Both the position numbers and the translations under genes were made by a program. Shown piece by piece: positions 17,576-64,000 of a DNA stretch of 64,000 nt (positions within the stretch are counted from its first letter, which is position 1; the number at the start of each line of letters is the position of its first letter). The DNA comes from Methanobacteriota archaeon. Lineage in GTDB: Archaea; Methanobacteriota; Methanobacteria; Methanobacteriales; Methanobacteriaceae. The stretch spans positions 640,001 to 704,000 of the forward strand of contig CAWBCJ010000029.1 in NCBI GenBank assembly GCA_963787255.1, given 5' to 3'. The notes below the pieces were generated by a model. That model did not search any database and was not told the DNA's origin. It saw only the letters and a program-made list of their open reading frames with translations.

Positions 17576-17604
17576 ACTTTATCCTCCAGTTAAAAATCAA
17601 AGAA

Positions 17605-17678
<74 letters not shown>

Positions 17679-17689
17679 ATATAATACAA

Positions 17690-17761
17690 CGCCCTGGCCG
17701 GGATTTGAACCCGAGTCGTGGGCTCGACAGGCCCACATGATAGCCCCTACACCACCAGGGC
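17690..17761 (-). tRNA. tRNA-Asp(GTC)
   Basis: Cloverleaf; TGGGC-CT GTC GA-GCCCA. Confidence 0.95.
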
Positions 17762-17875
17762 AGCTCTTAAGAATGAGAGTATAATTGGATATACGTATAC
17801 ATACTTAAATACTTTTCTAATTCTTCTAGTATATAACTTTTGTTATTTATTTTCCGGAGTATTTTAATAATAAAA

Positions 17876-17949
17876 TCCCGCCTGCCGGACTTGAACCAGC
17901 AACCCTCGGATCTACAGTCCGATGCTCTGCCAAATTGAGCTAAGGCGGG
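17876..17949 (-). tRNA. tRNA-Tyr(GTA)
   Basis: C1-G72 acceptor typical of archaeal Tyr; TCGGA-CT GTA GA-TCCGA. Confidence 0.95.
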
Positions 17950-17988
17950 AATATGAAATTATTTTTTGACTCCAACTATAAAAAATGG

Positions 17989-18064
<76 letters not shown>

Positions 18065-18102
18065 AAATGAAGTTCACTTATACTGTTATTAAATGGAACT
18101 AA

Positions 18103-18180
<78 letters not shown>

Positions 18181-49252: not shown

Positions 49253-50454
49253 ATGATTCTGAATATAAGAATCGACCATAAAACAGCGGATATTTGCACA
49301 ATTGAAAAATCTACTCGTCAAATGGACGAGCTCTTTGAAAAAATAAAGAGTGAATGTATTGTAGATGAGTATATTCAGATAAAAACATGCAATCGCGCCG
49401 AACTGTATATTTTTCTAGACAATATTAACCATAATAACATTGATTTTGATAATTTTATAGTTGAAACCGATGACGATGCCTTAAAACATCTTCTTAGATT
49501 GTCATGTGGCTTAGAATCCATGATAATAGGTGAGGATCAAATATTAGGACAAATAAAAGAGGCCAGAAAAAAAGCATTTCTACAGGTTGCTGCGGCCAAA
49601 TTTTAGATACTATTTTTACTAAAGCCATCCATGTTGGCCAGTCTGTAAGAAAAAGGACAAATATTAACAAGGGATCTATTTCTATTGGTTCTGCAGCGGT
49701 TGAACTTGCAGAGTCAGTTCACGGCGACTTGAAATGTAAAAAAGTCCTTGTTATAGGTGCTGGAAAAATGGGAACTCTGGTTGCAAAGGCTCTGGCGGAA
49801 AAACACCTTAAAGCAATTGTAGTGGCAAACAGGACATATGACCGAGCTAAGTGTCTTGCAAAGGAACTTGGAGGGTCAGCAATACATTTTGATAGACTTG
49901 ATGAATCCATGAGTGATGCTGATGTTATAATAAGTGCTACAGGAGCACCTCACGCTATTTTAAATCGTGATAAGGTTAAAAATGCAGTTCCGCATGAAAA
50001 TCTCCATAAACTGGTGATGGTGGATATTGCTAATCCGCGGGACATTGACGAAGATGTTAAAGAATTAGGTGTTAAATTATTTAATATTGATGATTTAAGG
50101 GGAATAGCAGATAAAAATAAGGAAATGAGGGAGTCTGAAGCTCTTGAAGCTGAAAAAATTATTGAAGAAGAAATTTTCCTTCTTAAAAAGTCTTTAAAAC
50201 ATCTTGAAGTTGAATCTCTTATTTCAAATATAAGGGGCAAGGCAGAGAAAATAAGGATTCATGAAACAGAAAAGGCAGTTAAGATGATGGGAGATATTAA
50301 CGGTAAAGAAAAAATAATTGACGACCTCACACACGTTATGATTGATAAAATCTTCTCTGATATCATAAAGAACATTAAAACTGCAGCTGAAAATGATGAT
50401 AAAAAAATAATTGAAACTGCAGAATGTCTTTTTGCAAGAGAAAATAGTAAATGA
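49253..50454 (+). CDS. hemA: Glutamyl-tRNA reductase (apparent 1-nt deletion near 49578)
   Basis: [25 protein letters not shown], split over two frames. Confidence 0.9.
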
Positions 50455-50591: not shown

Positions 50592-51269
50592 TTAAATTAA
50601 ATTAAATAACAGTATTAAAGAGCTACTAATAAACTCAGAATTCCTTTTTTCAAGACTTCCTTTTTTAACAGGATGTGAATTAATGATAGAGTCATGTATT
50701 GCATTATAAGATGCACTTGTACCGTTATTCAAATCATTTTGAATGTCAGAATTATTTTTTGATTTTAGCCAATCATTCCAGTTGGTTTTACCATTTATAC
50801 TCGCTTTGTTCATTGCTGAATGTAAATCATCATTTGATTGAATTACTCCGGGAGTTAAAAAACTGGCTTTTGTCTCATATAATGTGTGATTGGGTCCGCT
50901 GGCACCAGCACAGTGTGGGGCAGAAAAACTATCTGTAATATAATGGGAAGCTACGCCGTAGCAGTAACTGGCATAGTAGTAATCGCCAATTTCGTAGTAA
51001 TATTGTCCTTTATTCAGCCATTCTTCAGCTTTATCATAACTATTAGGGTAACTGTGGTATTTAAAATCAAAGAATTTAAAATCAGGATCCATTGAACCTT
51101 CTTTCATAGCATCTAAACTTAAATTTTGTTGAATGTCTGAAGGTAAGGAATTATAGTTATTTTCCACTATTTCTTCATGGGTATTCCAGTTCCAAGCTGA
51201 AGCAGCAGGAATTTGAACAAAAAATGCTCCGATTAAAAAAAGACATATTATTATTACTGTTTTATTCAT
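50592..51269 (-). CDS. Secreted zinc-dependent phospholipase C / S1-P1-like protein
   Basis: Signal peptide followed by W..TH; DPD; HYITD...H; H..YE. Confidence 0.8.
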   Translation of the reverse strand: MNKTVIIICLFLIGAFFVQIPAASAWNWNTHEEIVENNYNSLPSDIQQNLSLDAMKEGSMDPDFKFFDFKYHSYPNSYDKAEEWLNKGQYYYEIGDYYYASYCYGVASHYITDSFSAPHCAGASGPNHTLYETKASFLTPGVIQSNDDLHSAMNKASINGKTNWNDWLKSKNNSDIQNDLNNGTSASYNAIHDSIINSHPVKKGSLEKRNSEFISSSLILLFNLI

Positions 51270-51364
51270 GATTTCACATTATTTAAGATTTATTTTAAAT
51301 TTATTAGTATAATGAACTTATCTTGAAAGGAAACATTTATACTTTATGTATCAAAAAGAATTTA

Positions 51365-51394
51365 TATAACTATCGTTATATAACAATTGTAATA
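51365..51394. promoter_or_regulatory. Tandem palindromic operator (TATAACnATnGTTATA) upstream of the GMC gene
   Basis: TATAACTATCGTTATA (51365-51380) overlapping TATAACAATTGTAATA (51379-51394). Confidence 0.7.
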
Positions 51395-51427
51395 AAATTT
51401 TTTTAATTAATTTATAGAGTGAAATTT

Positions 51428-52756
51428 ATGACTTTTGACGTTGCAGTAATCGGAACAGGCGCTGGAGGCGCCACAGCAGCAAGGGAATTATCAAAAAAAG
51501 GACTTAAGGTCTTAATTTTGGAAAAAGGAAAACGCCACAAAACAGGTACATCCGCAAATCACATTAAAAACATCCCTATAAAACTAAAAATGGATTTAAT
51601 AGATAAAAATGAAGAAAATCTTGATTTTATCCAGCTTCCTGCAGAATTGATGTACATAGAAGATGTTGGAGGTACAACTCCAGTATCTCTTGCCAACGCA
51701 TGTTATGCTTGTAGTACATGTTATGCAAATTCTGCAACAACACAATTCCAAATCCACGACCTTGATCTCTTTAAAGAACTAATAGAAGCAAGTGGAGATT
51801 TAAAAGTTAACCCGTTTCCAGCAGATTTAATGGGACCTGCAACACGTAAAATAGTAGAATGTGGAGAAAGCCTCGGATTTTTCATGGAGCCTATGCCCAA
51901 ATTCATTGATTTTTCTAAATGTGATAGCTGTGGGCAGTGTATTCAAGGTTGTACAAGGGATGCAAAATGGGACTCAACACACTTTGTAAATGAAGCAGTA
52001 GCAAAAGGTGCAACTTTAATTTCAGATTTTAAAGTCACAAGAATTATCTCAGAAAATGGAGATGTAAAAGGAATAGAAGGCATATTTGGAGATAAAACAA
52101 AATATTTTGAAGTTAAAAAAGTTATAATTGCTTCAGGAGCATTAAATACTCCTCAAATTTTAAAAAATTCAGGAATTACAAAAAATGTAGGTGAAGGCTT
52201 ATTCTGTGATCTTTTTATAACCATTGGAGGATATTTAAAAGATATAAATTATTATAAAGAAATTCCTATGGGCGTAAAATCAGAATTCGGACCTTATTTT
52301 TTATCACCTCACTTTTCAAATCAGCTGATTGAATTACTGGAAAATAAGGGAGTCAACGCTAATCCTGAAGATATCGTTGGAATAATGGTTAAAATAGCAG
52401 ATGAAGCTAATGGAAAGGTTAATGAAGATAAATCAATTGAAAAAACACTTACTAAAAGAGATTTAGACCTTCTAAAAGAAGGATATGAAAAGAGCGTTAA
52501 AATACTTGTTGAAATGGGTGTAGATCCATCTTCTATAGTTGCAACGCCTATAAGAGGTGCACATCCTGGTGGAACCGCAGCAATGGGTAGTGTAGTTGAT
52601 AATAACTTAGAAACTGAAATTAAAGGACTATATGTAGCTGATGCCAGTGTAATTCCCCAAGCCCCGGGAAGACCTCCAATTTTAACTATAACTGCACTGG
52701 CAAAAAGACTTGCTAAAAACATCTCTAACGGCATGAAAGTAAAAATAGAGAACTAA
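51428..52756 (+). CDS. GMC-family flavoprotein oxidoreductase with [4Fe-4S] insert
   Basis: GTGAGG, CDSCGQCIQGC, HPGGT, VADAS, PILTITALA. Confidence 0.85.
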   Translation: MTFDVAVIGTGAGGATAARELSKKGLKVLILEKGKRHKTGTSANHIKNIPIKLKMDLIDKNEENLDFIQLPAELMYIEDVGGTTPVSLANACYACSTCYANSATTQFQIHDLDLFKELIEASGDLKVNPFPADLMGPATRKIVECGESLGFFMEPMPKFIDFSKCDSCGQCIQGCTRDAKWDSTHFVNEAVAKGATLISDFKVTRIISENGDVKGIEGIFGDKTKYFEVKKVIIASGALNTPQILKNSGITKNVGEGLFCDLFITIGGYLKDINYYKEIPMGVKSEFGPYFLSPHFSNQLIELLENKGVNANPEDIVGIMVKIADEANGKVNEDKSIEKTLTKRDLDLLKEGYEKSVKILVEMGVDPSSIVATPIRGAHPGGTAAMGSVVDNNLETEIKGLYVADASVIPQAPGRPPILTITALAKRLAKNISNGMKVKIEN

Positions 52757-52770
52757 AAAAACGTTTATAT

Positions 52771-53808
52771 GTGATGAAAATGGAAAATATAACCGAAAAT
52801 AGGTATTCAAGACAGGCAATTTTACACAACATTGGTAAAGAGGGTCAGGAAATACTGGGGAAAAGTCATGTTATCATTATAGGATGTGGGGCACTGGGAA
52901 CAGTGGCTGCAAATAATCTTGCGCGTGCAGGAGTAGGTAAAATCTCCATTTTAGACAGGGATTTTGTTGAACTAAACAACCTTCAGCGCCAGATGCTCTT
53001 CGATCAAAATGACGTAGGGGAACCAAAAGCAATAGCGGCAACCAGAAAACTGCAGTTAATTAATTCAGATATAGAAATAGTTCCCTTAGTTAAGGATTTA
53101 AACCATACTAACATCGATGAAATAATTAAGGATACAGATCTTGTTCTGGACGGAACAGATAACATCCAGACAAGAATGCTCCTTAACGATGTTTGCGTAA
53201 AGGAAAAAATTCCCTGGATTTACACCGGAGCAATTGGAACATCGGGCATGACAATGAATATTCTTCCGGATGCTGCATGTATCCGCTGTCTATATCCAAG
53301 CATTCCTAAACCCGGATCACTTCCAACATGCGATACAATGGGAGTTTTAAACACTGTAACAGTCATTATGGGTTCAATGGCCAGTACAGAGGCGATAAAA
53401 ATACTTCTTGGAAAAGCAAAACCTCGAAATAAACAGGACAGCAGCTTAATAGTCTATGATGCATGGAATAACTCATTCGACGAAATACTTGTAAGAAAAA
53501 ACGAAGAATGTGCATGCTGCATAGATGGAAGTTTCGATTATTTAAATGCTGAAGATAGAGAAGTTATTAGTTCGCTTTGCGGTCGAAATGCTATCCAAAT
53601 AACTCCTGCAGATGCAAAAGAGTTAGATTTACACGAATTAGCATCTAAACTTGAACATTTAGGCAATATCAAATGTGCAGATTTTATATTACTTTTTAAG
53701 ACCCAAAATTATGAAATATCTGTATTTCGTGATGGAAGAGCAATAATTAAAGGAACTGATAGTGAAAAAGTGGCAAGATCAATTTATGCAAGATTTATCG
53801 GTACTTAA
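52771..53808 (+). CDS. ThiF/MoeB/E1-family adenylyltransferase
   Basis: RYSRQ, GCGALG, NLQRQ, CxxC pairs, PTCD. Confidence 0.92.
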   Translation: MMKMENITENRYSRQAILHNIGKEGQEILGKSHVIIIGCGALGTVAANNLARAGVGKISILDRDFVELNNLQRQMLFDQNDVGEPKAIAATRKLQLINSDIEIVPLVKDLNHTNIDEIIKDTDLVLDGTDNIQTRMLLNDVCVKEKIPWIYTGAIGTSGMTMNILPDAACIRCLYPSIPKPGSLPTCDTMGVLNTVTVIMGSMASTEAIKILLGKAKPRNKQDSSLIVYDAWNNSFDEILVRKNEECACCIDGSFDYLNAEDREVISSLCGRNAIQITPADAKELDLHELASKLEHLGNIKCADFILLFKTQNYEISVFRDGRAIIKGTDSEKVARSIYARFIGT

Positions 53809-53936
53809 TATTTCAAAATATGAGATAATGTGTTCATTTAGGAAATTGGTTTTAATATATATACTTAAAGGGTCAAGTATTATAAGATCAAATTTTCGAG
53901 GAATTATTTTAATTTAATATGCGAGGTACAAACGAG

Positions 53937-54542
53937 ATGAAAACCCTTAAAATAGGTGAAAATACCTTTGAACTTGCAGAAATCATTATTAATGACTTAA
54001 AAGCATCAGAAAATATTGGAATTCTTAAATGCATCCAGTGCGGTATGTGCACATCAGTCTGTCCCGCAGCAAGACATACAGACTATGACTCACGAGAACT
54101 GGTTAAAAGAGTTCTAGATAAAGACGAAAGTTTAATTTCAGACCCCATAATTTGGGATTGTTTTTACTGCTACACCTGCCACAGCGTATGCCCTGTAAAT
54201 AATAGCCCATGCGAAATAAACCAAATAATAAGACAGAAAGCTATTGATAATGGAAACGGAAAATCCAAAATAGCCCCTTTTTCGGCATACGGCGATAGTT
54301 TCCTTGAATTTGGACTTGGAGCAATTCCAAACGATTTCTTCGACGACTTGTTAAAAGATTATGGAAAGGAATGGCTTGAATTAAAGATTAATTTGGAGGA
54401 TATCCGGGAAGAATTAGGTCTTGGCCCGATATTACTGCCAGAAAAGGATGTAAATGATATTAACAAAATTTTGGAGAAAACAGGATTCACTAAAAGACTG
54501 GATAGAATAAGGCGGTGTAAAGATGAAGAAAATACCAGATAA
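53937..54542 (+). CDS. hdrC: Heterodisulfide reductase subunit C-like
   Basis: CIQCGMCTSVCP and CFYCYTCHSVCP. Confidence 0.85.
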   Translation: MKTLKIGENTFELAEIIINDLKASENIGILKCIQCGMCTSVCPAARHTDYDSRELVKRVLDKDESLISDPIIWDCFYCYTCHSVCPVNNSPCEINQIIRQKAIDNGNGKSKIAPFSAYGDSFLEFGLGAIPNDFFDDLLKDYGKEWLELKINLEDIREELGLGPILLPEKDVNDINKILEKTGFTKRLDRIRRCKDEENTR

Positions 54543-55470
54543 GGAAATTTTACTCTTTAAAAGCTGCCTTGTAAATGTTGAATATCCGGGAGTAGAATCA
54601 TCAACCAAATTTCTATTCGATAAACTGGGAATAGAATACATTACAAGTGAAAGACAGTCCTGCTGCACTGGTTTAGGACATTACGCGGATTTATTTGACC
54701 AATTTTCAACAACTACACTTTCAGCAAGAAACTTTGGAATTGCAAGAGAAGAAGAACACAAAAATATAGCCACACTATGTGCTACCTGTTATGCAATACT
54801 AAAAAAATCAGCCAATATTTTAAATAAAAAAGAAGATGTTAGAAAAAAGGTAAATACGATTTTCGACGATACAGAAATTCCTAATTTGAAATATAATGCA
54901 GATGATATGGATTCAAGAGATAATATTTTCCATGTAGCTGAAATTCTTTATAATAAGGCCGAAGAAATTGAAAATCTTGTAGAAATAGATTTATCAGGCT
55001 TTAAAGTGGCTGCACATCACGCCTGCCATTATTGTAAAGTTCATCATAATGATACTATTGGAAATGTGAGAAATCCAATGGTTATAGAAACCCTTGCTAA
55101 AGCATGCGGTGTGGAAACAGTGGACTGGTATGATCGCAAAACAAATACCTGTGGTAACGGCTTCAGGCAGCGTTACATGAATAAAGATTTATCATTTTCC
55201 ATAACAGCAGAAAAGCTGCTTAGTTTAAAGGAGAATGAAGTTGATATTTTACTTCACATGTGTCCAAATTGTCAGCTGCAATTTGACAGAAACCAGAAAG
55301 TCATTGGAGAATCAATGGATACTGAATTCAATATTATGTGCCTTAACATTTCTCAATTTATAGCTCTTGCTCTTGGAGCCGACCCTTACAAAGTTGTAGG
55401 GATTCAGACACACTCAGTTCCTATAGAACCTATTTTAAAGAAAATAAAGCAGATTAACCTATGTTTATGA
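54523..55470 (+). CDS. hdrB: Heterodisulfide reductase subunit B-like
   Basis: CCG-domain motifs SCCTG/CATC and HHACH/CPNC..QFD. Confidence 0.85.
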   Translation: MKKIPDKEILLFKSCLVNVEYPGVESSTKFLFDKLGIEYITSERQSCCTGLGHYADLFDQFSTTTLSARNFGIAREEEHKNIATLCATCYAILKKSANILNKKEDVRKKVNTIFDDTEIPNLKYNADDMDSRDNIFHVAEILYNKAEEIENLVEIDLSGFKVAAHHACHYCKVHHNDTIGNVRNPMVIETLAKACGVETVDWYDRKTNTCGNGFRQRYMNKDLSFSITAEKLLSLKENEVDILLHMCPNCQLQFDRNQKVIGESMDTEFNIMCLNISQFIALALGADPYKVVGIQTHSVPIEPILKKIKQINLCL

Positions 55471-55479
55471 GGTAAGACA

Positions 55480-57855
55480 TTGAATAACTATAATTTTTCA
55501 AGATATGCACCAAAAAGCAGTATAGATATTGGTGTTTTTTTATGCCGTTGTGGAGGAAATATTTCCGATACAGTTGACATTGAAAGGCTTAAGTCTTCAA
55601 TAGACGCTAAAGTAGTGAAGGATTTCGAAAATCTCTGCTCAATCAAGTGCCAGAAGAATATCAGGGATATTATACTGGAAGAAGATTTAGACCGGGCAGT
55701 AATTGCAGCATGTTCACCGATTACTCACGAAAAAACCTTTAGAAACCATGTAGCTCCTCTAAATCCATATCTTTTAGAAATGGCCAATATAAGAGAACAG
55801 TGTTCATGGGTGCATTCTGATGTGGATAAGGCAACGGAAAAGGCAATATCACTTACGGGTGCTGCCATTGAACGGGTTAAATACGCCAGACCACTGGACA
55901 CAATAGTTCGAAAAACCAAAAAAAGCGTCGCTGTAATAGGTGGTGGAATATCTGGAATAACTACCGCGCTTTCAATGGCAAAACAGGGCATTAAAGTATA
56001 CATAATTGAAGAAAAGCCTACAGTCGGTGGAAATATGATAAAAATAGGCAAAGTATTCTCTCCAGAAAAACTTGCAGAAGAATGTGCGCTGTGTCTTTTC
56101 AATCCACTGATAAATGAGGCAGTACAGCATAAAAATATTGAAATGATCACCAATGCAGAGCTTAAATCATCCGAAAGGAAAGCTGGAAACTTTAACTTGA
56201 TTGTCGAAAGAAAACCAAGTTTTGTTAAGGAAGATAGATGTACAGCATGCGGTAACTGTGCGGAAGTCTGTCCAGTGGATGTTCCAAATGAATGGAACGA
56301 AAAATTGATGCTGAGAAAGGCTATTTACAAACCGTTCCCGCAGTCAGTTCCTGACGTATACACAATTGATGAAGAACACTGTATTAAGTGTGGAAAATGC
56401 CAGAAAGTCTGTACAATGGATGCTATTAATCTTTCGATGAAAGGGGAAATTATGCCTCTTAACGTTGGTTCTGTGGTTATAGCCACTGGCCATAAAGGAT
56501 TTAACCTTACAAAACGTCCTGAATATGGATATGCAAGATATGATGATGTAATAACTCAAATGGAGCTTGCGAGGATAATGGGGGTTAATGGACCGACAAA
56601 TGGTAAATTACTCCAACCTTCAACTGGTAAAATTCCAAGAAGAGTGGTTATGGTTCAATGCGCAGGTTCCAGGGACGAAAAGCCTGAAGGAAAACGATAC
56701 TGTTCAAAAGTTTGCTGCATGGTGGCTTTAAAGCATGCAAACTTTATCAAACGTTACTATCCAGATACAGAAGTTATAATCTGTTATACGGATATGAGAA
56801 CCCCGGGAATGTATGAAAATTATTTTAGACATGCACAATCAAAGGAGATTAAACTAATAAGGGGAAGACCTGGAGAAATAGCTAAGAAAGGGGAAAATCT
56901 CGTTGTCAGAGTTGAAGATACTTTGAAAGGGGAACAATTGGAAATAGAAACTGACATGGTTGTTTTATCTGAGGCAATGGAGCCTTCAGAGGGAACATTA
57001 AAAGTAGCAGAAACATTGAATGTCGGTCTTACCGAAGATCTCTTCGTAAAAGAGAAACATCCAAAGATAAAGCCAGTTAGCACAGATATAGAGGGAATCT
57101 ATGTTTGTGGAACTGCACAGGGTCCAAAAGATATTACTGATAGCGTTTCCCAGGCAAACGCAGCGGCATCTAAGGTTTCAGAAATTATGAATGGGGGATT
57201 AGAGATAGAACCGACCATAGCAGTTATTGACCCTTCCAACTGTCAAATCTGTGGGGACTGTGTAACAGCATGTAAATATAAAGCTATTTACATGCAAGAT
57301 GAGCGTATATCAGTTGATGCTATTGCCTGTACTGGCTGTGGAATATGTATGTCCAAATGTAAGCATGAAGCAGTTGAAATTATGGGCCAAACAGATAGTC
57401 AACTGTATGCAATGATTTCTGGTATGTTGAAGGGCAAAAAAGATGGTGAAAGGAGAATACTGGCATTTGTAGATTATATAGGCTACGTAGCATCTGATAA
57501 CATAGGAATAAACAGGATATCCTATCCACAATCAGTTAGAATCATTAGAATTTCATCAATTAACCGTTTAATGCCGAAACATATTATATATGCATTTGAA
57601 AACGGCGCAGATGGAATATTTTTGGGTGAATATCCTGATGATATAATGTATCCGAGTATTCAAGAAAAAGTGCAACAATTCCGCTCTGCACTTATAAAAA
57701 ATAGTATAGATCCAGATAGATTGATGTATTACAAGGTTTACGCACCGTACTTTAGAGGATTGGCCAATAAATTCTATGAATTTGATAAACAGGTTAGTAA
57801 TGCCCTTGATAAGCTTGAAGCGGTGTTATACAAAGCTTCTTCTAAAGATTTATAA
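55480..57855 (+). CDS. hdrA: Heterodisulfide reductase subunit A fused to a degenerate MvhD-like domain
   Basis: AACSP, NIREQCSWVH, GGGISG, ferredoxin inserts, YCSKVCC, GPKDI; C-terminal YPQSVRIIR...GADG. Confidence 0.9.
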   Translation: MNNYNFSRYAPKSSIDIGVFLCRCGGNISDTVDIERLKSSIDAKVVKDFENLCSIKCQKNIRDIILEEDLDRAVIAACSPITHEKTFRNHVAPLNPYLLEMANIREQCSWVHSDVDKATEKAISLTGAAIERVKYARPLDTIVRKTKKSVAVIGGGISGITTALSMAKQGIKVYIIEEKPTVGGNMIKIGKVFSPEKLAEECALCLFNPLINEAVQHKNIEMITNAELKSSERKAGNFNLIVERKPSFVKEDRCTACGNCAEVCPVDVPNEWNEKLMLRKAIYKPFPQSVPDVYTIDEEHCIKCGKCQKVCTMDAINLSMKGEIMPLNVGSVVIATGHKGFNLTKRPEYGYARYDDVITQMELARIMGVNGPTNGKLLQPSTGKIPRRVVMVQCAGSRDEKPEGKRYCSKVCCMVALKHANFIKRYYPDTEVIICYTDMRTPGMYENYFRHAQSKEIKLIRGRPGEIAKKGENLVVRVEDTLKGEQLEIETDMVVLSEAMEPSEGTLKVAETLNVGLTEDLFVKEKHPKIKPVSTDIEGIYVCGTAQGPKDITDSVSQANAAASKVSEIMNGGLEIEPTIAVIDPSNCQICGDCVTACKYKAIYMQDERISVDAIACTGCGICMSKCKHEAVEIMGQTDSQLYAMISGMLKGKKDGERRILAFVDYIGYVASDNIGINRISYPQSVRIIRISSINRLMPKHIIYAFENGADGIFLGEYPDDIMYPSIQEKVQQFRSALIKNSIDPDRLMYYKVYAPYFRGLANKFYEFDKQVSNALDKLEAVLYKASSKDL

Positions 57856-57887
57856 GCAATCTCTCAAAAATCAAAGATTTTTGCTAG

Positions 57888-58506
57888 CTACGATTTTTCA
57901 TGGATTGGAAGTGTAAAATAAAAAGTCGAACCCTTAACCAACTCTGATTCCACCCAAACACGACCACCATGGCGATCAATAATTCTTTTTACAATTGAAA
58001 GTCCAATTCCAGTTCCTTGATATTCTTCATTTGTGTGGAGCCTTTGGAATATGGTGAAAATTTGATCTTGATATGGGGAATTTATTCCAATTCCATTATC
58101 TTCTTGATCCTCTGCTAAAGCTTGAAAGAATAAATCAATGGGTCTTCTAAAACCATGAGGTTCTGAAGGTTTAATAAGGCCTAATACACCATTTACAATT
58201 CCTATGTCATTATTTGGGGGGATGACATACACTTTATTTGGTTTAACTGGCATGATTATCTTGAATTTCAAGTACTTCCATATCAGTATATCTTGCAATT
58301 AATTCTGCCATAGTGCTTTTATGTGTGGGATCTTAGATGTTGAATCAAAACAAATCCCATACCTGTATCTACTGAGGCATATTACTAAATAATTTCTCTA
58401 AAGCTTCCAGCCCACCTGCAGATGAACCAATACCTACTATGGGAAATTTGCCTTTTTCTTTGGAATTGACTTTTGATTTATTTAGAGTTTTATTCTGATT
58501 TTCCAC
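57888..58506 (-). pseudogene. CheB-methylesterase N-terminus joined to a histidine-kinase HATPase C-terminus (deletion remnant)
   Basis: GIGSSAGG and IQH (CheB); [23 protein letters not shown] (HATPase); frameshifts in the 5' part. Confidence 0.8.
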
Positions 58507-58805
58507 ATTAATTCCCCTTTAAGCTTAATTTGAATTAATTAGCTTCATTTAAACCTTTTTAGTGAATTGGATAAATAATTGAAATTTAATAAATTATTAT
58601 ATGTTATAATTCAACTGATTAATAATAGTATTCTAAGTAAAAAATAGAGTTATAAACAAATTTTAAACTATTTAGGCTAGATATGAACATTATTTAGTAA
58701 GATTAAGGATTTCATTTAATAATGGCTCATTATGCATGAAAGTTTAATTAGGCAATGATTATTATTAACAATTTTTTTATAATTATTGAAACATATAGTA
58801 TATTC

Positions 58806-59135
58806 ATGCCTCAAAAAGATTATAAAAAAATAATGGAAGAAAGCAACAAGCAGAAAAAAATCGAAGAAGAATTAAATAAAACTCGTATTAGTATAATTAG
58901 GACCATTAAAGACAGGAAAAGAGTTGAAATGGAATATTTGGATGCAGTAAAAAAACAAATGGGATACTGGAAAAGCCAAATAGAAAATACTGATCCTGAA
59001 AAAGATAAAGAAAGATATAATGTAATTAAAAAGAATATTGAAATGGAAAAAGCACATATTAAACAAATTCAAGATGAATTAAATAGAATAAACGAAGAAC
59101 TTAAAATGGCAAATGAATATCAAAAAATTAAATAA
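58806..59135 (+). CDS. Hypothetical coiled-coil protein
   Basis: E/K-rich heptad pattern. Confidence 0.55.
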   Translation: MPQKDYKKIMEESNKQKKIEEELNKTRISIIRTIKDRKRVEMEYLDAVKKQMGYWKSQIENTDPEKDKERYNVIKKNIEMEKAHIKQIQDELNRINEELKMANEYQKIK

Positions 59136-59173
59136 ACCATCAATAACTAATTATATTAACTATATTGGATAAT

Positions 59174-60116
59174 TTATATTGGATAATAATGGGTCGGCTC
59201 AGGGTGAACTTTTTTAATAAATTGTGTATTAAAAATATTTTCTTCTTTTAAATTTCCCTGCATGTAACCCAATTCATTTAATATAGGGATAAATTTGAGT
59301 GTAGATTCAATATACTCTTTTGAAATGCTTGCACAGTATTTTGGAGACACATTATACGTTTTAAGCACAAAATCTTTACTAACTACTCCAACTTCTTTTA
59401 AAACAATCTCTGCTGCTTTTTCAGGCTGTGTTCTTATTAAATTGGAAGCATCTTCGTGGGCTTTAAGGAAATCTATTATAAATTCTGGTGATTCATTGAT
59501 TAATTCTTCTTTTACAACTATTCCATAGCTTGGATTGTATGGCCAGAGTTTATTTGGAGGAATTACAACTTTAGAATCAAATCTGTTTGAAATAACTGTT
59601 GCAAGGGAAGGTGTTCCAACACCAGCAGCAATTTTACCCTCATCTATTGCATCGGGGATAAAATCTGCCCAATGGAAAATTTTCTAATGTTTATATTAAA
59701 ATCTTTGGTAATTTCATGTATAATTACATCGTGAATGCACCCTTTAGTTGGAGTTCCAATAGTCTTACCTTCAAACTGCTTTAAAACAGCTTCTAAACTT
59801 CCCAATTCCTCAAAAGATTTATAGAATTTGGGAGCAACCATTACAGTGCCTTCTACATGCCCTCCTCCGATGCATTTAATTTTTAAGCCATTTTCAATTC
59901 CTATCATAACTGGAGGAAGACCTATATAACCCACATCAATGTTTTCAGATTTGAATGCTTCTATCATTGCAGGTCCTGTTGCAAATAAAGACCATTTTAA
60001 ATCGTAATCATTTAAATATTTGGTAAATTACTATTTTTTAAGATAAATGATGTGTGATATATTGTTGAAAGGTAACCTATACGGATTTTAATTCCTCCTT
60101 TTTCTTTACATTTCAT
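59174..60116 (-). CDS. SsuA/TauA/NMT1-like substrate-binding-fold protein lacking a signal peptide (frameshifted here)
   Basis: IRIGYLSTIYHTS, ATGPAMIEAF, IGTPTKGCIHDV, NPSYGIVV, FLKAHEDA, reconstructed over several frames. Confidence 0.7.
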
Positions 60117-60118
60117 AA

Positions 60119-60134
60119 ATTAACAATTGTTATA
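60119..60134. promoter_or_regulatory. Operator copy directly upstream of the SsuA-like gene
   Basis: ATTAACAATTGTTATA, ending just before the ATG at 60116 on the minus strand. Confidence 0.65.
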
Positions 60135-60164
60135 TTTCAATAAAATAAAAAAAAAAAGGTATTT

Positions 60165-60440
60165 CTAGCCACCAGCTATAGTCTGGAAGATTACAATTTC
60201 ATCATCATCTTTCACTTCGCTTTCAAGGCCTCCTCCAGATTGTGCATCTTCTCCATTAACGAGAATTTTCATATAATCTCTTAATTCACCATTTTTATCA
60301 AATAAAGCATCTTTAAATTCATTTCCATACTTTTCAGTTAAAATATCAATTAAATCTGCAATATTTCCATTGTGATCAATATTTACAGATCTTTCTCCTG
60401 TGATATCTCTAAAACGTGCTAAAAACTTAATTTCTACCAT
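60165..60440 (-). CDS. MoaD/ThiS/SAMP ubiquitin-like sulfur carrier
   Basis: Beta-grasp pattern (KFLARFRDITG, ILVNG, DDDEI) and C-terminal GG. Confidence 0.92.
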   Translation of the reverse strand: MVEIKFLARFRDITGERSVNIDHNGNIADLIDILTEKYGNEFKDALFDKNGELRDYMKILVNGEDAQSGGGLESEVKDDDEIVIFQTIAGG

Positions 60441-60552
60441 AATATGTCTCCTGATACGTTTAAATTTAAAAATATTTATTAATATGATTTATTTTATATT
60501 TAAATCAATATTGGTCTATTTATAATCTAACTTTTAAGGTTAACTTTTGCTC

Positions 60553-60568
60553 TATAACTATTGTTATA
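60553..60568. promoter_or_regulatory. Operator copy between divergent moaD-like and hydrolase genes
   Basis: TATAACTATTGTTATA. Confidence 0.7.
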
Positions 60569-60719
60569 ATCCAGGTTATAAATTTTACTCATGAACATAG
60601 ATTCTATTGTTAGTGCTCCTGATTTTTTTGATACTGGATAAGCAAAAATTAAGATCATTATTTTAGCATGAGTAAAGTTATTACAAACAAAATATAACTT
60701 ATTAATATAAAGAACTGTA

Positions 60720-61697
60720 ATGGATGTGAAAAATATGACCCGTAAGATGGAATTGGAAAATGAAGTGTTGATACACGAGGACAAGGTCATTCGTCGTGAA
60801 ATAAGTTTTCCCAGCCAAAATGTACAGCTTAAAGGCTGGATTTATTTACCTGCAGATAGGGCGAGAAAGAAAAGCCCAGGGATAGTAACAGCCAACGCTT
60901 TAACGGCGGTCAAAGAGATTACATTACCGGGCTATGCCGAACGCTTTGCAGCAGCGGGTTTCGTAACTCTGGTATTTGACTACAGATTTTGGGGTGAAAG
61001 CGAAGGAGAACCCCGCAACCAGATAATACCCTACGAAATGCAGCAAGACCTGAAGAATGCCATCACATGGCTCGCTGAACAGCCAGAAGTTGATGCAGAT
61101 CGCATAGGAGGATGGGGTGTCTCTTTGGGTGGTGCACACATGCTTTATCTATCTGCATTCGAACGCCGGCTCAAAGCTGTAGTGGCCACGGCCACATCGG
61201 TTAATGGTATTGATACTTCAGAAATGATGATGGGAAAAGAAGCCATGCAGCAAATGATGCTCCAGCTGGCTCAGGATCGGGTGATGAGATATAAAACCGG
61301 CGCGCCTGCCACCTATAAAACTGCCTGGGGAAAATTTGGCGAAGATGTTCTATTCCCGGTGGAAGAGGCTCTGGATTTCTACATGAATGCTAAAAACACC
61401 ATAGCCCCAAACTTTGAAAATCGCGTCACTGTTCAGTCCATGGAGAATTTGAACGAATACAACCCAGACTTTGCCATCCACATGGCATCGCCTACTGCGG
61501 TACTTATTGTGCATGCTGAGCACGATGTTATACCTGTAGAGTTGGTACGTGATGTGTATGAGCGTGCCGAGGAGCCCAAGAAACTTGTGGTGAAAGACTG
61601 TAAACACACGGACCTTTATGATAAGGAGCCATGGATTACAGAATCATCAGATGAAGCTATTGGATGGTTTAGAAAATATTTAGTGAGTGTACCATGA
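60720..61697 (+). CDS. Alpha/beta hydrolase
   Basis: FDYRFWGESEG, nucleophile GVSLGG, HD, KH catalytic region. Confidence 0.85.
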   Translation: MDVKNMTRKMELENEVLIHEDKVIRREISFPSQNVQLKGWIYLPADRARKKSPGIVTANALTAVKEITLPGYAERFAAAGFVTLVFDYRFWGESEGEPRNQIIPYEMQQDLKNAITWLAEQPEVDADRIGGWGVSLGGAHMLYLSAFERRLKAVVATATSVNGIDTSEMMMGKEAMQQMMLQLAQDRVMRYKTGAPATYKTAWGKFGEDVLFPVEEALDFYMNAKNTIAPNFENRVTVQSMENLNEYNPDFAIHMASPTAVLIVHAEHDVIPVELVRDVYERAEEPKKLVVKDCKHTDLYDKEPWITESSDEAIGWFRKYLVSVP

Positions 61698-61859
61698 ACT
61701 GGCCTTTTTCACTGGTTTTTGGAGCATTTAAATAGTTTATGTATTGGTTGACTAAATATAATCTTTAAATCCTCAAATTAATTAATAATTTATGGGGTGG
61801 TTTAAATTATTTTAATTGACTGAATCTTTAAATAATTTATTTTTACAAAACTGTTATAT

Positions 61860-61875
61860 ATTCACGATTGTTATA
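61860..61875. promoter_or_regulatory. Degenerate operator copy upstream of the PNPOx-like gene
   Basis: ATTCACGATTGTTATA (right half perfect). Confidence 0.45.
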
Positions 61876-61895
61876 AATATTGGTAGGTGATTTAA

Positions 61896-62294
61896 ATGGT
61901 AATGACAGAAGAAATGATGGATGCAGTTGAAAAGGATAATGTAGTATTTTTTGCAACTGCAACTAAAGAAGGAGTGCCTAATGTTGTCCCAATTGGATTT
62001 GCAAGGCCAATTGACAATAAAACAATCATGATTGTGGACAATTACTTGAATAAGACTCGTAAAAATCTTGAAGATAACCCAAAAGCAAGTTTAGTACCAA
62101 GAGATGCTTCAAAGTGCCCTTATCAATTCAAAGGAACAGTTGAAATCTTAACTTCTGGAAAAATATTTGATGATGCAGTAGATTGGGCAACAAGTGTAAT
62201 GAGCAAACTCGCGCCTAAAGCAGCAGTTATACTAAACGTGGAAGAGATTTATACAGTGCAACCAGGTCCTGATGCAGGTTCAAAAGTGGATTAA
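61896..62294 (+). CDS. Pyridoxamine 5'-phosphate oxidase-like split-barrel flavin/F420-binding protein
   Basis: ATATKEGVPNVVP, KTRKNLEDNP, YQFKG, PGPDAG. Confidence 0.85.
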   Translation: MVMTEEMMDAVEKDNVVFFATATKEGVPNVVPIGFARPIDNKTIMIVDNYLNKTRKNLEDNPKASLVPRDASKCPYQFKGTVEILTSGKIFDDAVDWATSVMSKLAPKAAVILNVEEIYTVQPGPDAGSKVD

Positions 62295-62376
62295 TTTTTA
62301 AAATTATTTTTATTTTTCTTAAATCTAAAATAAGATGTATGGTTTAAAATAAAATTTTAATTAAGAAATTTTTAAG

Positions 62377-62733
62377 GTGATTTTAATATCAGCAAGAGTA
62401 GCTATTGCAAGTAGCGATGGAAAGTTTGTAAATCAGCATTTTGGTAGAGCGCAGCAGTTTTTAATTGTAGATATTAATGATGACGGCAGTTATGAATTTT
62501 TAGAAATTAGAGAGAATACTCCTTCATGTCATGTTGAAGGACATGATTCTTCAATTGAAGATACATTAGATTTAATTTCTGACTGTGATGGAGTATTAGT
62601 AAGTCAGGTTGGTCCTGGAGCAGCCGATAAGTTAATAGAAAGGGGAATTCAGCCCATAATAATACCAATGTTAATAGATGAGGCTATAAAGAAGGTTTAT
62701 TCGTTAATGCAGGAAAAAGATGATGAAAATTAA
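62377..62733 (+). CDS. NifB/NifX-family (FeMo-co-binding domain) protein
   Basis: VAIASSDG..VNQHFGRA..F; SDC...SQVGPGA. Confidence 0.88.
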   Translation: MILISARVAIASSDGKFVNQHFGRAQQFLIVDINDDGSYEFLEIRENTPSCHVEGHDSSIEDTLDLISDCDGVLVSQVGPGAADKLIERGIQPIIIPMLIDEAIKKVYSLMQEKDDEN

Positions 62734-62760
62734 TGGAACTAAAATTTTTTAATCACATAA

Positions 62761-62883
62761 TATAACGATCGTTAATTTTATATATGATGTTCTTTACTAA
62801 ATGAATATAACTATAGTTATATTATGGCATCCTCAGCCAATAAAATGTATAATCTGTAACAATGTTATATAACTATAGTTATA
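62761..62883. promoter_or_regulatory. Cluster of 3-4 operator copies upstream of cysK
   Basis: TATAACGATCGTTAAT 62761-62776; TATAACTATAGTTATA 62806-62821 and 62868-62883; TGTAACAATGTTATA 62855-62869. Confidence 0.8.
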
Positions 62884-62937
62884 TATTACATAAAAAACAA
62901 TAGAAAAAATAGATATAGTATTACAATGGTGAGAAAT

Positions 62938-63926
62938 ATGGTAAAAATACCAGAATTAAAAAGAGGAATAGCAAATAATGTAACAGAACTGATAGGAAAT
63001 ACTCCTCTTGTAAGGTTAAACAGAATTACCGAAGGGACAGACGCAGAGGTTGTAGCAAAGCTTGAATCATTCAACCCTTTAAGCAGCGTAAAAGACAGAA
63101 TAGGAGTTGCAATGATAGAATACGGGGAAGAACAGGGACTTATTAATAAAGATTCAGTTCTTAGTAGAACCTACAAGTGGAAATACCGGTATTGCACTTG
63201 CATTTGTTGCAGCAGCTAAAGGATACAAACTTATTCTTACAATGCCCGATACAATGTCCATAGAAAGAAGAAAGTTGCTTGCACTTCTCGGTGCCGAAAT
63301 TGTATTAACTCCTGGTGCAAATGGAATGAAAGGGGCTGTAGCCAAAGGCAGAAGAACTATCCGAAAGTATACCTAATGCAGTAATGCCTCAACAGTTTAA
63401 AAACCCTGCAAACCCAAAAATCCACAGGGAAACAACTGCACATGAAATATTAAGAGATACAGATGGTAAAGTAGATATATTAGTTGCAGGTGTAGGTACT
63501 GGTGGAACAATAACAGGTATTGCAGAAGTTTTAAAAGAAAAAAACCCTGATTTTAAGGCAGTAGCAGTCGAACCAATATCCTCTCCAGTATTATCTGGAG
63601 GAAAACCCGGACCGCATAAAATTCAGGGAATAGGGGCAGGATTTGTTCCTGATATTCTTAGAACGGATTTAATAGATGAAATCATTCAAGTAAAGGACGA
63701 AGACGCTGCAAGTACATTATTAAGACTTGCAAGAGAAGAAGGAATACTTGCAGGTATATCATCAGGGGCTGCAACATGGGCTGCCATTGAACTTGCAAAA
63801 AGAGAAGAAAATGAAGGTAAAAGGATAGTAGTAATTCTACCAGATACAGGAGAAAGATACTTAAGTATGGACTGGGTATTTGAAGAAGTTTTCCATACCT
63901 ACAATCAAAAGGATTTCTCCAACTAA
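62938..63926 (+). CDS. cysK: Cysteine synthase A (two apparent 1-nt insertions near 63163 and 63346)
   Basis: [43 protein letters not shown]. Confidence 0.9.
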
Positions 63927-64000
63927 GGTCATAGAATATCCATTTATTTCTATTTTTATTTTTCAACGAAAATTCCTGAAATGGAGGCGTGCAAATGTTT

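Follow-up and report, generated by a model that had tools for sequence, protein, structure and literature searches.

A 64,000-nucleotide stretch of DNA from a Methanobacteriota archaeon (contig CAWBCJ010000029.1, positions 640,001 to 704,000; hereafter the window) carries eight intergenic copies of the palindrome TATAAC-N4-GTTATA between positions 51365 and 62883. With a probability of roughly 0.6, judged from sequence comparisons, this 16-bp palindrome is an operator through which a repressor controls a cysteine/sulfur regulon. The motif is non-random, intergenic and specific to one spacer length; it recurs in front of orthologues, and the genes that it precedes form a coherent set. It is very probably bound by a protein, and the regulation exerted through it is fairly probably repression. 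There is a slightly better than even chance that the regulator is a small XRE-type helix-turn-helix (HTH) protein encoded after cysE, as gene neighbourhood suggests; sensing of an Fe-S cluster or of thiols by this candidate is a tentative proposal.

Copies of the palindrome in the window

The Pfam profile of the window is that of a Methanobacteriaceae methanogen, with a split RNA polymerase B subunit, F420 biosynthesis genes, MreB and Hdr-like proteins; its HdrB-like protein (54523-55470) shows 88% identity to counterparts in Methanobacterium sp. MBAC-AD1 and ACI-7. Reference genomes were scanned with this HdrB-like protein to give a set of 80 loci from relatives, all Methanobacteriaceae, of at most 21 kb each and 1.27 Mb in total (labelled L001 and so on). 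All conservation counts refer to these loci of about 20 kb, not to whole genomes. The eight copies in the window are listed with their mismatches to the window consensus, TATAACNATNGTTATA, which is matched exactly at 51365, 60553, 62806 and 62868:

51365..51380: operator copy TATAACTATCGTTATA; 0 mismatches, 21.9 bits; distal member of the tandem before the GMC-ThiF-Hdr-like operon
51379..51394: operator copy TATAACAATTGTAATA; 1 mismatch, 18.6 bits; overlaps the 51365 copy at a 14-bp offset, centre 41 nt before the ATG at 51428
60119..60134: operator copy ATTAACAATTGTTATA; 2 mismatches, 18.9 bits; situated some 34 nt before the SsuA-like start, same position in L001
60553..60568: operator copy TATAACTATTGTTATA; 0 mismatches, 19.8 bits; ThiS-side part of a divergent region
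61860..61875: degenerate operator copy ATTCACGATTGTTATA; 3 mismatches, 10.8 bits; directly after TTATATAT (61853-61860)
62761..62776: operator copy TATAACGATCGTTAAT; 2 mismatches, 16.9 bits; distal copy of the cysK promoter
62806..62821: operator copy TATAACTATAGTTATA; 0 mismatches, 21.3 bits; cysK promoter
62868..62883: operator copy TATAACTATAGTTATA; 0 mismatches, 21.3 bits; proximal copy of the cysK promoter

The initial annotation of the window had described about eight intergenic copies, overlapping tandems in two places and no good copy in the first 51 kb. The number and the intergenic location stood, with the exception of a copy placed at 62855, where only a TAAC-N3-GTTA element scoring below 8 bits is found, at 62857. 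Because this element has a 3-base spacer, only one of the two tandems holds, that of 51365 and 51379, which is also found in L001 and L013. The tandem starts within a TTTATATA box (51361-51368), which overlaps the left half of the 51365 copy, and reaches to 34 nt before the ATG. At the cysK promoter, the distal copy has an identical sequence in the same place in L001, L003 and L007, and the centre of the proximal copy lies 50 nt before an ATG at 62926 and 62 nt before an ATG at 62938. The copy at 60553, earlier assigned to a moaD/hydrolase pair, most likely serves the ThiS/MoaD-like gene rather than the hydrolase, which appears to be an insertion peculiar to the window. In the first 51 kb a middling copy, TATAACTTTTGTTATT, was detected at 17832-17847 (13.8 bits, 2 mismatches, TTTT spacer) between tRNA-Tyr and tRNA-Asp. 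This match is probably due to chance, in line with the one or two chance matches seen for other spacers. It lies within a group of five tRNA genes (Thr, Pro, Tyr, Asp, Lys; 17604-18176, minus strand) between pgk and rpoH.

Enrichment and spacer specificity

Matches with at most three mismatches numbered 23 in the window, compared with 8.86 +/- 3.16 in 100 dinucleotide shuffles, none of which reached 23 (maximum 17). TAAC-N4-GTTA occurred eight times, against zero to two times for every other spacer from N0 to N9. An independent matrix, built from sites of other genomes only and scored against the window's own intergenic composition, gave nine intergenic matches of at least 10 bits, as against a mean of 0.22 (maximum 3) when the intergenic DNA was replaced by 300 first-order Markov copies; of the nine, eight fall in 51365-62883.

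The 80 loci gave the same picture on a larger scale. TAAC-N4-GTTA was found 239 times, in 56 loci, compared with 10-43 times for other spacers and 15-41 times for the inverted arrangement GTTA-Nx-TAAC. When at most one mismatch over the 12 half-site positions was allowed, the loci held 173 sites with the N4 spacer (165 of them intergenic) and 4-21 with N1-N3 or N5-N8. Allowing up to two mismatches to the 16-mer yielded 258 matches, the window's nine included, and 239 of these were intergenic even though about 80% of the DNA is coding; at least one such match was present in 58 of the 80 loci. The expectations of the initial annotation that the motif would exceed an AT-matched background (9 versus 0.22 by matrix, 173 versus 4-21 by spacer) and recur upstream of orthologues in related genomes (58 of the 80 loci) were thus borne out.

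In sites picked on eight core bases only, the spacer read AATT in 111 of 239, with A in 94% and T in 91% at the two centre positions. Since the freely varying positions still show TA on either side of the core and an AATT spacer, the family consensus is a perfect palindrome, TATAACAATTGTTATA, of 16 bp with half-site centres 10 bp apart. The motif combines several of the properties by which an operator is recognized: inverted-repeat symmetry with fixed spacing, excess over matched background, confinement to intergenic or promoter DNA and conservation before a coherent gene set.

It is scarcely credible that chance or the composition of AT-rich promoters accounts for the motif, for example as a variant of the TATA box, or that it is the remnant of a small mobile repeat. 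Both of its ends do read TATA, and the G+C content of the window, as of the genome, is about 35%, with intergenic DNA that is 74% A+T (A 0.36, T 0.38). However, the G/C positions and the 4-base spacer are nearly invariant, AT-matched controls predict 20-40 times fewer sites, the flanks are unconserved, and the genes downstream belong to one pathway.

Genes preceded by the motif

The 1282 open reading frames (ORFs) of the loci were clustered, and the clusters named from Pfam and NCBIfam; the Pfam scan covered 64 of the 75 gene clusters that have three or more members. A motif was counted as upstream of a gene when it lay within 300 nt upstream of the orthologue's start:

O-acetylhomoserine sulfhydrylase-type pyridoxal-phosphate enzyme (metY-like): 21 of 21
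cysK: 13 of 14
PNPOx-like flavoprotein: 26 of 32
ThiS/SAMP1-like carrier: 16 of 19
GMC-type flavoprotein, head of the ThiF-HdrC-HdrB-HdrA/MvhD-like operon: 21 of 40
cysS: 22 of 40
HdrC-like gene: 11 of 78
SsuA/NMT1-like binding protein: 8 of 19
cysteine desulfurase: 5 of 10
MetX-CBS, HcyBio, NifH-like and NifD/K-like genes: occasionally

The motif-bearing genes most likely form a cysteine/methionine/sulfur-carrier regulon. The earlier description of a local regulon proved too narrow, as the operator of the relatives also stands before the tRNA-Cys-cysS unit, the metY-like gene, cysteine desulfurase and others. In 33 loci (for example L016:17745-17815, minus strand, and L023:4990-5060) cysS is immediately preceded by a gene for tRNA-Cys(GCA), and it is to this gene that the cysS-associated sites belong. 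In 23 of the 33, TATTTATATAACAATTGTTAAY was found 25-72 nt upstream of the mature tRNA end, so that the operator begins inside a canonical TTTATATA box. The gene for tRNA-Cys and that for its synthetase appear to share one amino-acid-specific operator. Judged by domain content, the GMC/ThiF/HdrCBA-MvhD-like operon, together with the ThiS/SAMP-like carrier, cysK and, in relatives, the metY-like gene, suggests protein-thiocarboxylate-dependent synthesis of cysteine and homocysteine fed by an Hdr-like reductase.

A probable DNA site rather than an RNA hairpin

Among 140 intergenic sites with a half-site mismatch, the mismatch was uncompensated in 135, while in five the two halves were still complementary. 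Pairs of sites in the relatives were offset by 14 bp, with a 2-base overlap, 18 times, and five further pairs were 28 bp apart. Uncompensated mismatches and overlapping sites indicate that the sequence is read, rather than its pairing, and hence argue for a protein-DNA site. The dimeric regulator proposed initially fits the perfect 16-bp palindrome, the 10-bp distance between half-site centres, the 135 of 140 uncompensated mismatches and the 14-bp overlaps.

A short hairpin in 5' leaders, acting at the RNA level on translation, stability or termination, is very improbable. A stem of 6 bp with a 4-nt loop could form, and the PNPOx site lies 20-36 nt before the start codon, near the ribosome-binding site. 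However, complementarity is kept in just five of the 140 variant sites; conservation extends to the sequence and is not limited to its pairing; the 2-bp overlap at a 14-bp offset would render neighbouring hairpins mutually exclusive; the site before a tRNA gene lies on the TATA box; and the stem would be A/U-rich and weak. A search of the window, L001 and L016 against Rfam at gathering score returned tRNAs only, with no T-box.

Position at promoters and proposed mechanism

At the PNPOx gene of 17 loci, a distance of 24-29 nt separates the centre of the proximal site from the start codon that follows. In the window this site is the degenerate copy at 61860, whose centre lies 28.5 nt before the ATG and which fills the gap between TTATATAT and a GGTGA ribosome-binding site. 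Sites on a TATA box or near a start codon occupy positions typical of archaeal repressors, and from this we infer repression. The initial annotation had likewise placed the sites on TATA boxes or starts and thought a repressor probable; this agrees with the TTTATATA box at tRNA-Cys and the 24-29 nt at PNPOx, but overlap with the TATA box is not general.

In the mechanism that we propose, TATAACAATTGTTATA would be the operator of a dimeric HTH factor in Methanobacterium and close Methanobacteriaceae. Its regulon would comprise, in the window, the GMC-ThiF-HdrCBA-like operon, the SsuA-like gene, the ThiS/SAMP-like gene, the PNPOx-like and NifX-like genes and cysK(-cysE), and, in relatives, also the tRNA-Cys-cysS unit, O-acetylhomoserine sulfhydrylase, cysteine desulfurase and others. 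From sites on or just downstream of the TATA box and near start codons, often in 14-bp tandems, the bound protein would shut the promoter by excluding TBP/TFB or RNA polymerase. The repressor would be released when cysteine or sulfur is scarce, following the same logic as the induction of cysE-cysS by cysteine starvation in Bacillus. The C-terminal half of the regulator may bind an Fe-S cluster or a metal, or may be a thiol switch that reports sulfur status.

The candidate regulator

The candidate is an XRE/Cro-type HTH protein of 126-132 amino acids encoded directly after cysK-cysE in relatives. Nine of 14 cysK copies are followed by cysE and the HTH gene, and 10 of 11 copies of the HTH gene stand directly after cysE. 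Of the DNA-binding families, this one alone is recurrent in the loci (64 of 75 clusters scanned), and in the three loci closest to the window TATAAC-N4-GTTATA is found 84-90 nt before its start. That no cognate regulator is visible in the window, as had been noted, was upheld: tblastn of the window with the candidate gave no homologue, and a Pfam scan found no transcription-factor domain in those window ORFs that were scanned. As the window ends at the start of cysE (63995), the regulator gene is expected about 0.8 kb past base 64000.

The N-terminal half of the protein matches HTH_3 (PF01381) weakly in L001, at 23.4 bits against a cut-off of 23, and 60 of 68 family members match this domain. 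A broad profile retrieved the lambda-repressor-like chain 28tn_A with an E-value of 1.9e-7, over profile positions 20-72, that is the HTH part only; the best E-value in a PDB sequence search with a narrow profile was 0.047. The Cys/His-rich C-terminal half is all-helical and had no match in Pfam, NCBIfam, PDB sequences or Foldseek, and NCBIfam has no family for the protein. A PPCE-VVWYVIP segment is conserved in the N-terminal part. Seven residues are invariant in 18 sequences, C5 near the N-terminus and C89, C92, C102, H105, C115 and C118 in the C-terminal half; in a broader set of 68 diverse members C115 and C118 never vary, and conservation of C102 is at least 90%. A homodimer prediction (score 0.04, mark 0.42) counts neither way.

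Close homologues number 577 and are named only 'transcriptional regulator' or similar, and the wider family is found archaea-wide, with 1901 representatives (50%-identity clusters) at E <=0.001. A protein atlas held only 'hypothetical' or HTH_3 clusters from archaeal taxa, and nothing once the HTH_3 clusters were excluded. A role of the candidate as a metal, Fe-S or thiol sensor is a reasonable, if tentative, reading. The wider proposal would make the candidate a sensor of Fe-S clusters or of thiol/persulfide that, by way of TATAACAATTGTTATA, represses the whole supply network of Methanobacterium for cysteine, homocysteine, sulfur carriers and Fe-S clusters, tRNA-Cys-cysS included; it is tentative and on balance less likely than not.

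Weighing the repressor reading

Several observations weigh against repression at this operator by the candidate. In the oriented flanks of 106 gene-proximal sites, a TATA box was upstream in 22 and downstream in 20, leaving a TATA box on the promoter-distal half-site unsupported as a general rule; overlap of the operator with the TATA box is clear only at tRNA-Cys and a few promoters. At some genes, the metY-like gene among them, the site and the called start codon are 120-290 nt apart. One clade (L015 and L017-L022) has no site at its tRNA-Cys promoter, and 22 of the 80 loci, including Methanobrevibacter loci, termite-associated lineages and short contigs, have no match with at most two mismatches; Methanobrevibacter acididurans (L060) has a single weak 2-mismatch match, within an ORF. 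As to the candidate, its link to the motif is one of gene neighbourhood within 20-kb loci. Only three of 11 HTH genes have a site of their own, and the others would need read-through from cysK-cysE across gaps of 76-137 nt. An AlphaFold2 model from 18 sequences has six helices and a mean predicted local distance difference test (pLDDT) score of 73.3, with values below 50 for the presumed recognition helix (residues 43-51), and Foldseek of this model against the PDB returned nothing at E <=0.001 (best 1.6). The Cys/His pattern could also be a structural zinc site without a sensing role.

Two other explanations draw on these observations. It is rather unlikely, if worth keeping in mind, that the operator is a genuine cysteine/sulfur operator bound by another factor encoded elsewhere, and that the HTH protein beside cysE does something else. 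The 20-kb loci cover a minor part of each genome, few HTH genes have their own site, and the HTH family is archaea-wide while the motif was found only in Methanobacteriaceae loci. On the other hand, no second DNA-binding family recurs in the loci, the HTH gene lies within the regulon, directly after cysE in all but one of its copies, and its HTH segment shows no variation among the clades that have the invariant motif in common.

Less probable again is an activator or dual-role factor that brings TBP/TFB to weak promoters when sulfur is limiting. Such a factor would accord with a site that ends in TATA on both sides, with the many sites more than 100 nt from the start codon and with the absence of a fixed TATA position in the oriented flanks. 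Archaeal activators, though, usually bind upstream of the B recognition element (BRE) and TATA box. The tRNA-Cys site covers part of the canonical TTTATATA box and extends downstream of it, and the PNPOx site occupies the space between the TATA-like box and the ribosome-binding site, an arrangement more in keeping with the repressor that we favour.

Genes beside the operators

The genes next to the operators of the window were as follows:

50592..51269, minus strand: Zn-dependent phospholipase C-like gene (Pfam); divergent from the GMC operon, with a common operator-bearing intergenic region
51428..57855, plus strand: operon downstream of the tandem operator (Pfam, NCBIfam); gene order conserved in the loci
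51428-52756, plus strand: GMC/FAD oxidoreductase with Fe-S insert, first gene of the operon
52771-53808, plus strand: ThiF/MoeB-type E1, operon member
53919-54542, plus strand: HdrC-like, operon member
54523-55470, plus strand: HdrB-like CCG protein, operon member
55480-57855, plus strand: HdrA-like protein fused to MvhD/FlpD, operon member
59186..60092, minus strand: NMT1/SsuA-like substrate-binding protein gene (tblastn; Pfam of the orthologue); reading frame interrupted by two frameshifts
60165..60440, minus strand: ThiS/MoaD/SAMP1-like sulfur-carrier gene (Pfam; NCBIfam SAMP1/moaD_arch)
61896-62294, plus strand: PNPOx-like flavoprotein (Pfam, NCBIfam)
62377-62733, plus strand: NifX/NifB-C-like Nitro_FeMo-Co protein (Pfam, NCBIfam)
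62926..63926, plus strand: cysK (O-acetylserine sulfhydrylase, PALP family; Pfam; tblastn in three frames); two frameshifts
63995..64000, plus strand: start of cysE, codons ATG TTT, cut by the window end; TIGR01172 names cysE in relatives

Orthologues of the phospholipase C-like gene have the motif within 300 nt in nine of nine cases, a count that may reflect only the spacer held in common with the GMC operon. The window end, ggaggcgtgcaaATGTTT at 63995, corresponds to the cysE start of L001 and L003 (MFDR.../MFER..., in the same ggaggc...ATGTTT context). Three genes of the window appear broken: alignment by tblastn to intact orthologues needs three frames for cysK, three for the SsuA/NMT1-like gene and two for hemA (49253-50454). 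As hemA should be indispensable in a methanogen, sequencing or assembly errors seem likelier than pseudogenes.

An alpha/beta-hydrolase gene (Peptidase_S15-like, 60720-61697) is a singleton with a counterpart in none of the 80 loci and is, by eye, richer in G+C than its surroundings. As it has no counterpart and lies between the two operators that flank the divergent ThiS-PNPOx promoter of L001 and L003, it is probably a recent insertion. The region from 58.3 to 60.1 kb is A+T-rich and degraded. Just before it, a HATPase_c/CheB-like fragment (57888-58298, minus strand) is an apparent remnant of a histidine kinase and CheB/CheR-PAS genes that are intact here in L002 and L013. A small ORF at 58755-59135 (plus strand) belongs to a family of 16 members of about 100-126 amino acids, several of them arranged in tandem in L002:19096-20208 and L013:18960-20108, which matched nothing in Pfam or NCBIfam; one member overlaps an ORF on the opposite strand in L001.

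Other repeats were also seen. A second palindrome, CAAAAATC-N3-GATTTTTG, is located at 57868-57886, just past the stop codon of the HdrA-like gene. AAATC-N3-GATTT has 39 intergenic matches in the loci and window together (the window's counted) and may be a terminator-like or repetitive extragenic element. A search of the 22 motif-less loci for a variant of the operator palindrome gave nothing convincing: GAAAA-N7-TTTTC is scattered, and TCATG-N8-CATGA is one tandem repeat in L055, where an array of a 12-bp unit, TTCATGATTGTG, occupies the locus end (L055:20807-20920) upstream of a P-type ATPase gene.

Comparison with known systems

The archaeal repressors MDR1, LrpA, Phr, NrpR and TrmB/Tgr resemble the present system in having a short palindrome at the core promoter, sometimes in tandem, with presumed steric exclusion of TBP, TFB or RNA polymerase. 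Their sites differ, reading for example TATCAC-N5-GTGATA or GGAA-N6-TTCC rather than TATAAC-N4-GTTATA; the genes here are those of cysteine and sulfur, and the candidate is a small XRE-type HTH protein and not a member of the DtxR, Lrp, ArsR or TrmB families. SurR of Thermococcales is a sulfur-response regulator of the winged-helix ArsR type that binds a GTT-N3-AAC motif and carries a CxxC redox switch. Its signal is elemental sulfur, and its targets are hydrogenase and sulfur-reduction genes rather than those of cysteine biosynthesis. Both systems are archaeal and have a short GTT/AAC palindrome tied to sulfur availability through cysteines, as is proposed here, but the candidate is HTH_3/lambda-repressor-like and the half-sites are in the opposite arrangement and differently spaced, AAC-N4-GTT. 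An operator of the SurR type was rejected on this ground, with inverted arrangements at background (15-41).

CymR (Rrf2) and CysB, which in bacteria are the master regulators of cysteine metabolism, show the same gene logic, with one regulator coordinating cysK, sulfur uptake and cysteine desulfurase, and residues C102, H105, C115 and C118 of the candidate are reminiscent of the Cys3His ligation of the [2Fe-2S] cluster in IscR. In Pfam and NCBIfam the candidate had no match to Rrf2 or LysR, and no gene of either family recurs in the loci. The T-box of Bacillus cysE-cysS likewise co-regulates the cysteinyl-tRNA synthetase with cysteine synthesis; there an RNA leader reads tRNA charging, whereas here a DNA operator is predicted at the tRNA-Cys-cysS promoter. 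Dimers of the Cro/C1 type usually bind 16-bp palindromes whose half-site centres are separated by one helical turn. The lambda/434 Cro/C1 repressors (XRE, HTH_3) are the systems that the N-terminal half of the candidate matches, through HTH_3 and 28tn_A; the candidate differs by its additional Cys/His-rich, all-helical C-terminal half and its PPCE-VVWYVIP segment. AmzR, described in the preprint 10.1101/2025.05.05.652248, belongs to another family, with another regulon, and was left out of the comparison.

In motif, gene set and candidate family the present system matches none of the known systems compared, and no description of the motif, the regulon or the regulator family was found in the result listings of full-text literature searches.

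Significance

To our knowledge, little has been established about how methanogens sense and regulate the supply of sulfur and cysteine, and the palindrome would be a first handle on the regulation of sulfur metabolism in methane-producing archaea. The operator provides a regulon that is defined by sequence. It ties the unexplained GMC-ThiF-HdrCBA-like, ThiS/SAMP-like, PNPOx-like and NifX-like genes to cysK, cysE, the metY-like gene, cysS and tRNA-Cys, a link that suggests a protein-thiocarboxylate or Hdr-like route of sulfur mobilization. A factor that controls a tRNA gene together with the gene for its synthetase would, if real, be of some general interest. The candidate regulator comes from an uncharacterized archaea-wide family, and there is a real chance that it opens an uncharacterized family of archaeal sensors. 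Should the sensor reading be true, it would be the first described master regulator of archaeal sulfur assimilation and the founding characterized member of this archaea-wide family, whose members would then probably sense metal or sulfur status in many lineages.

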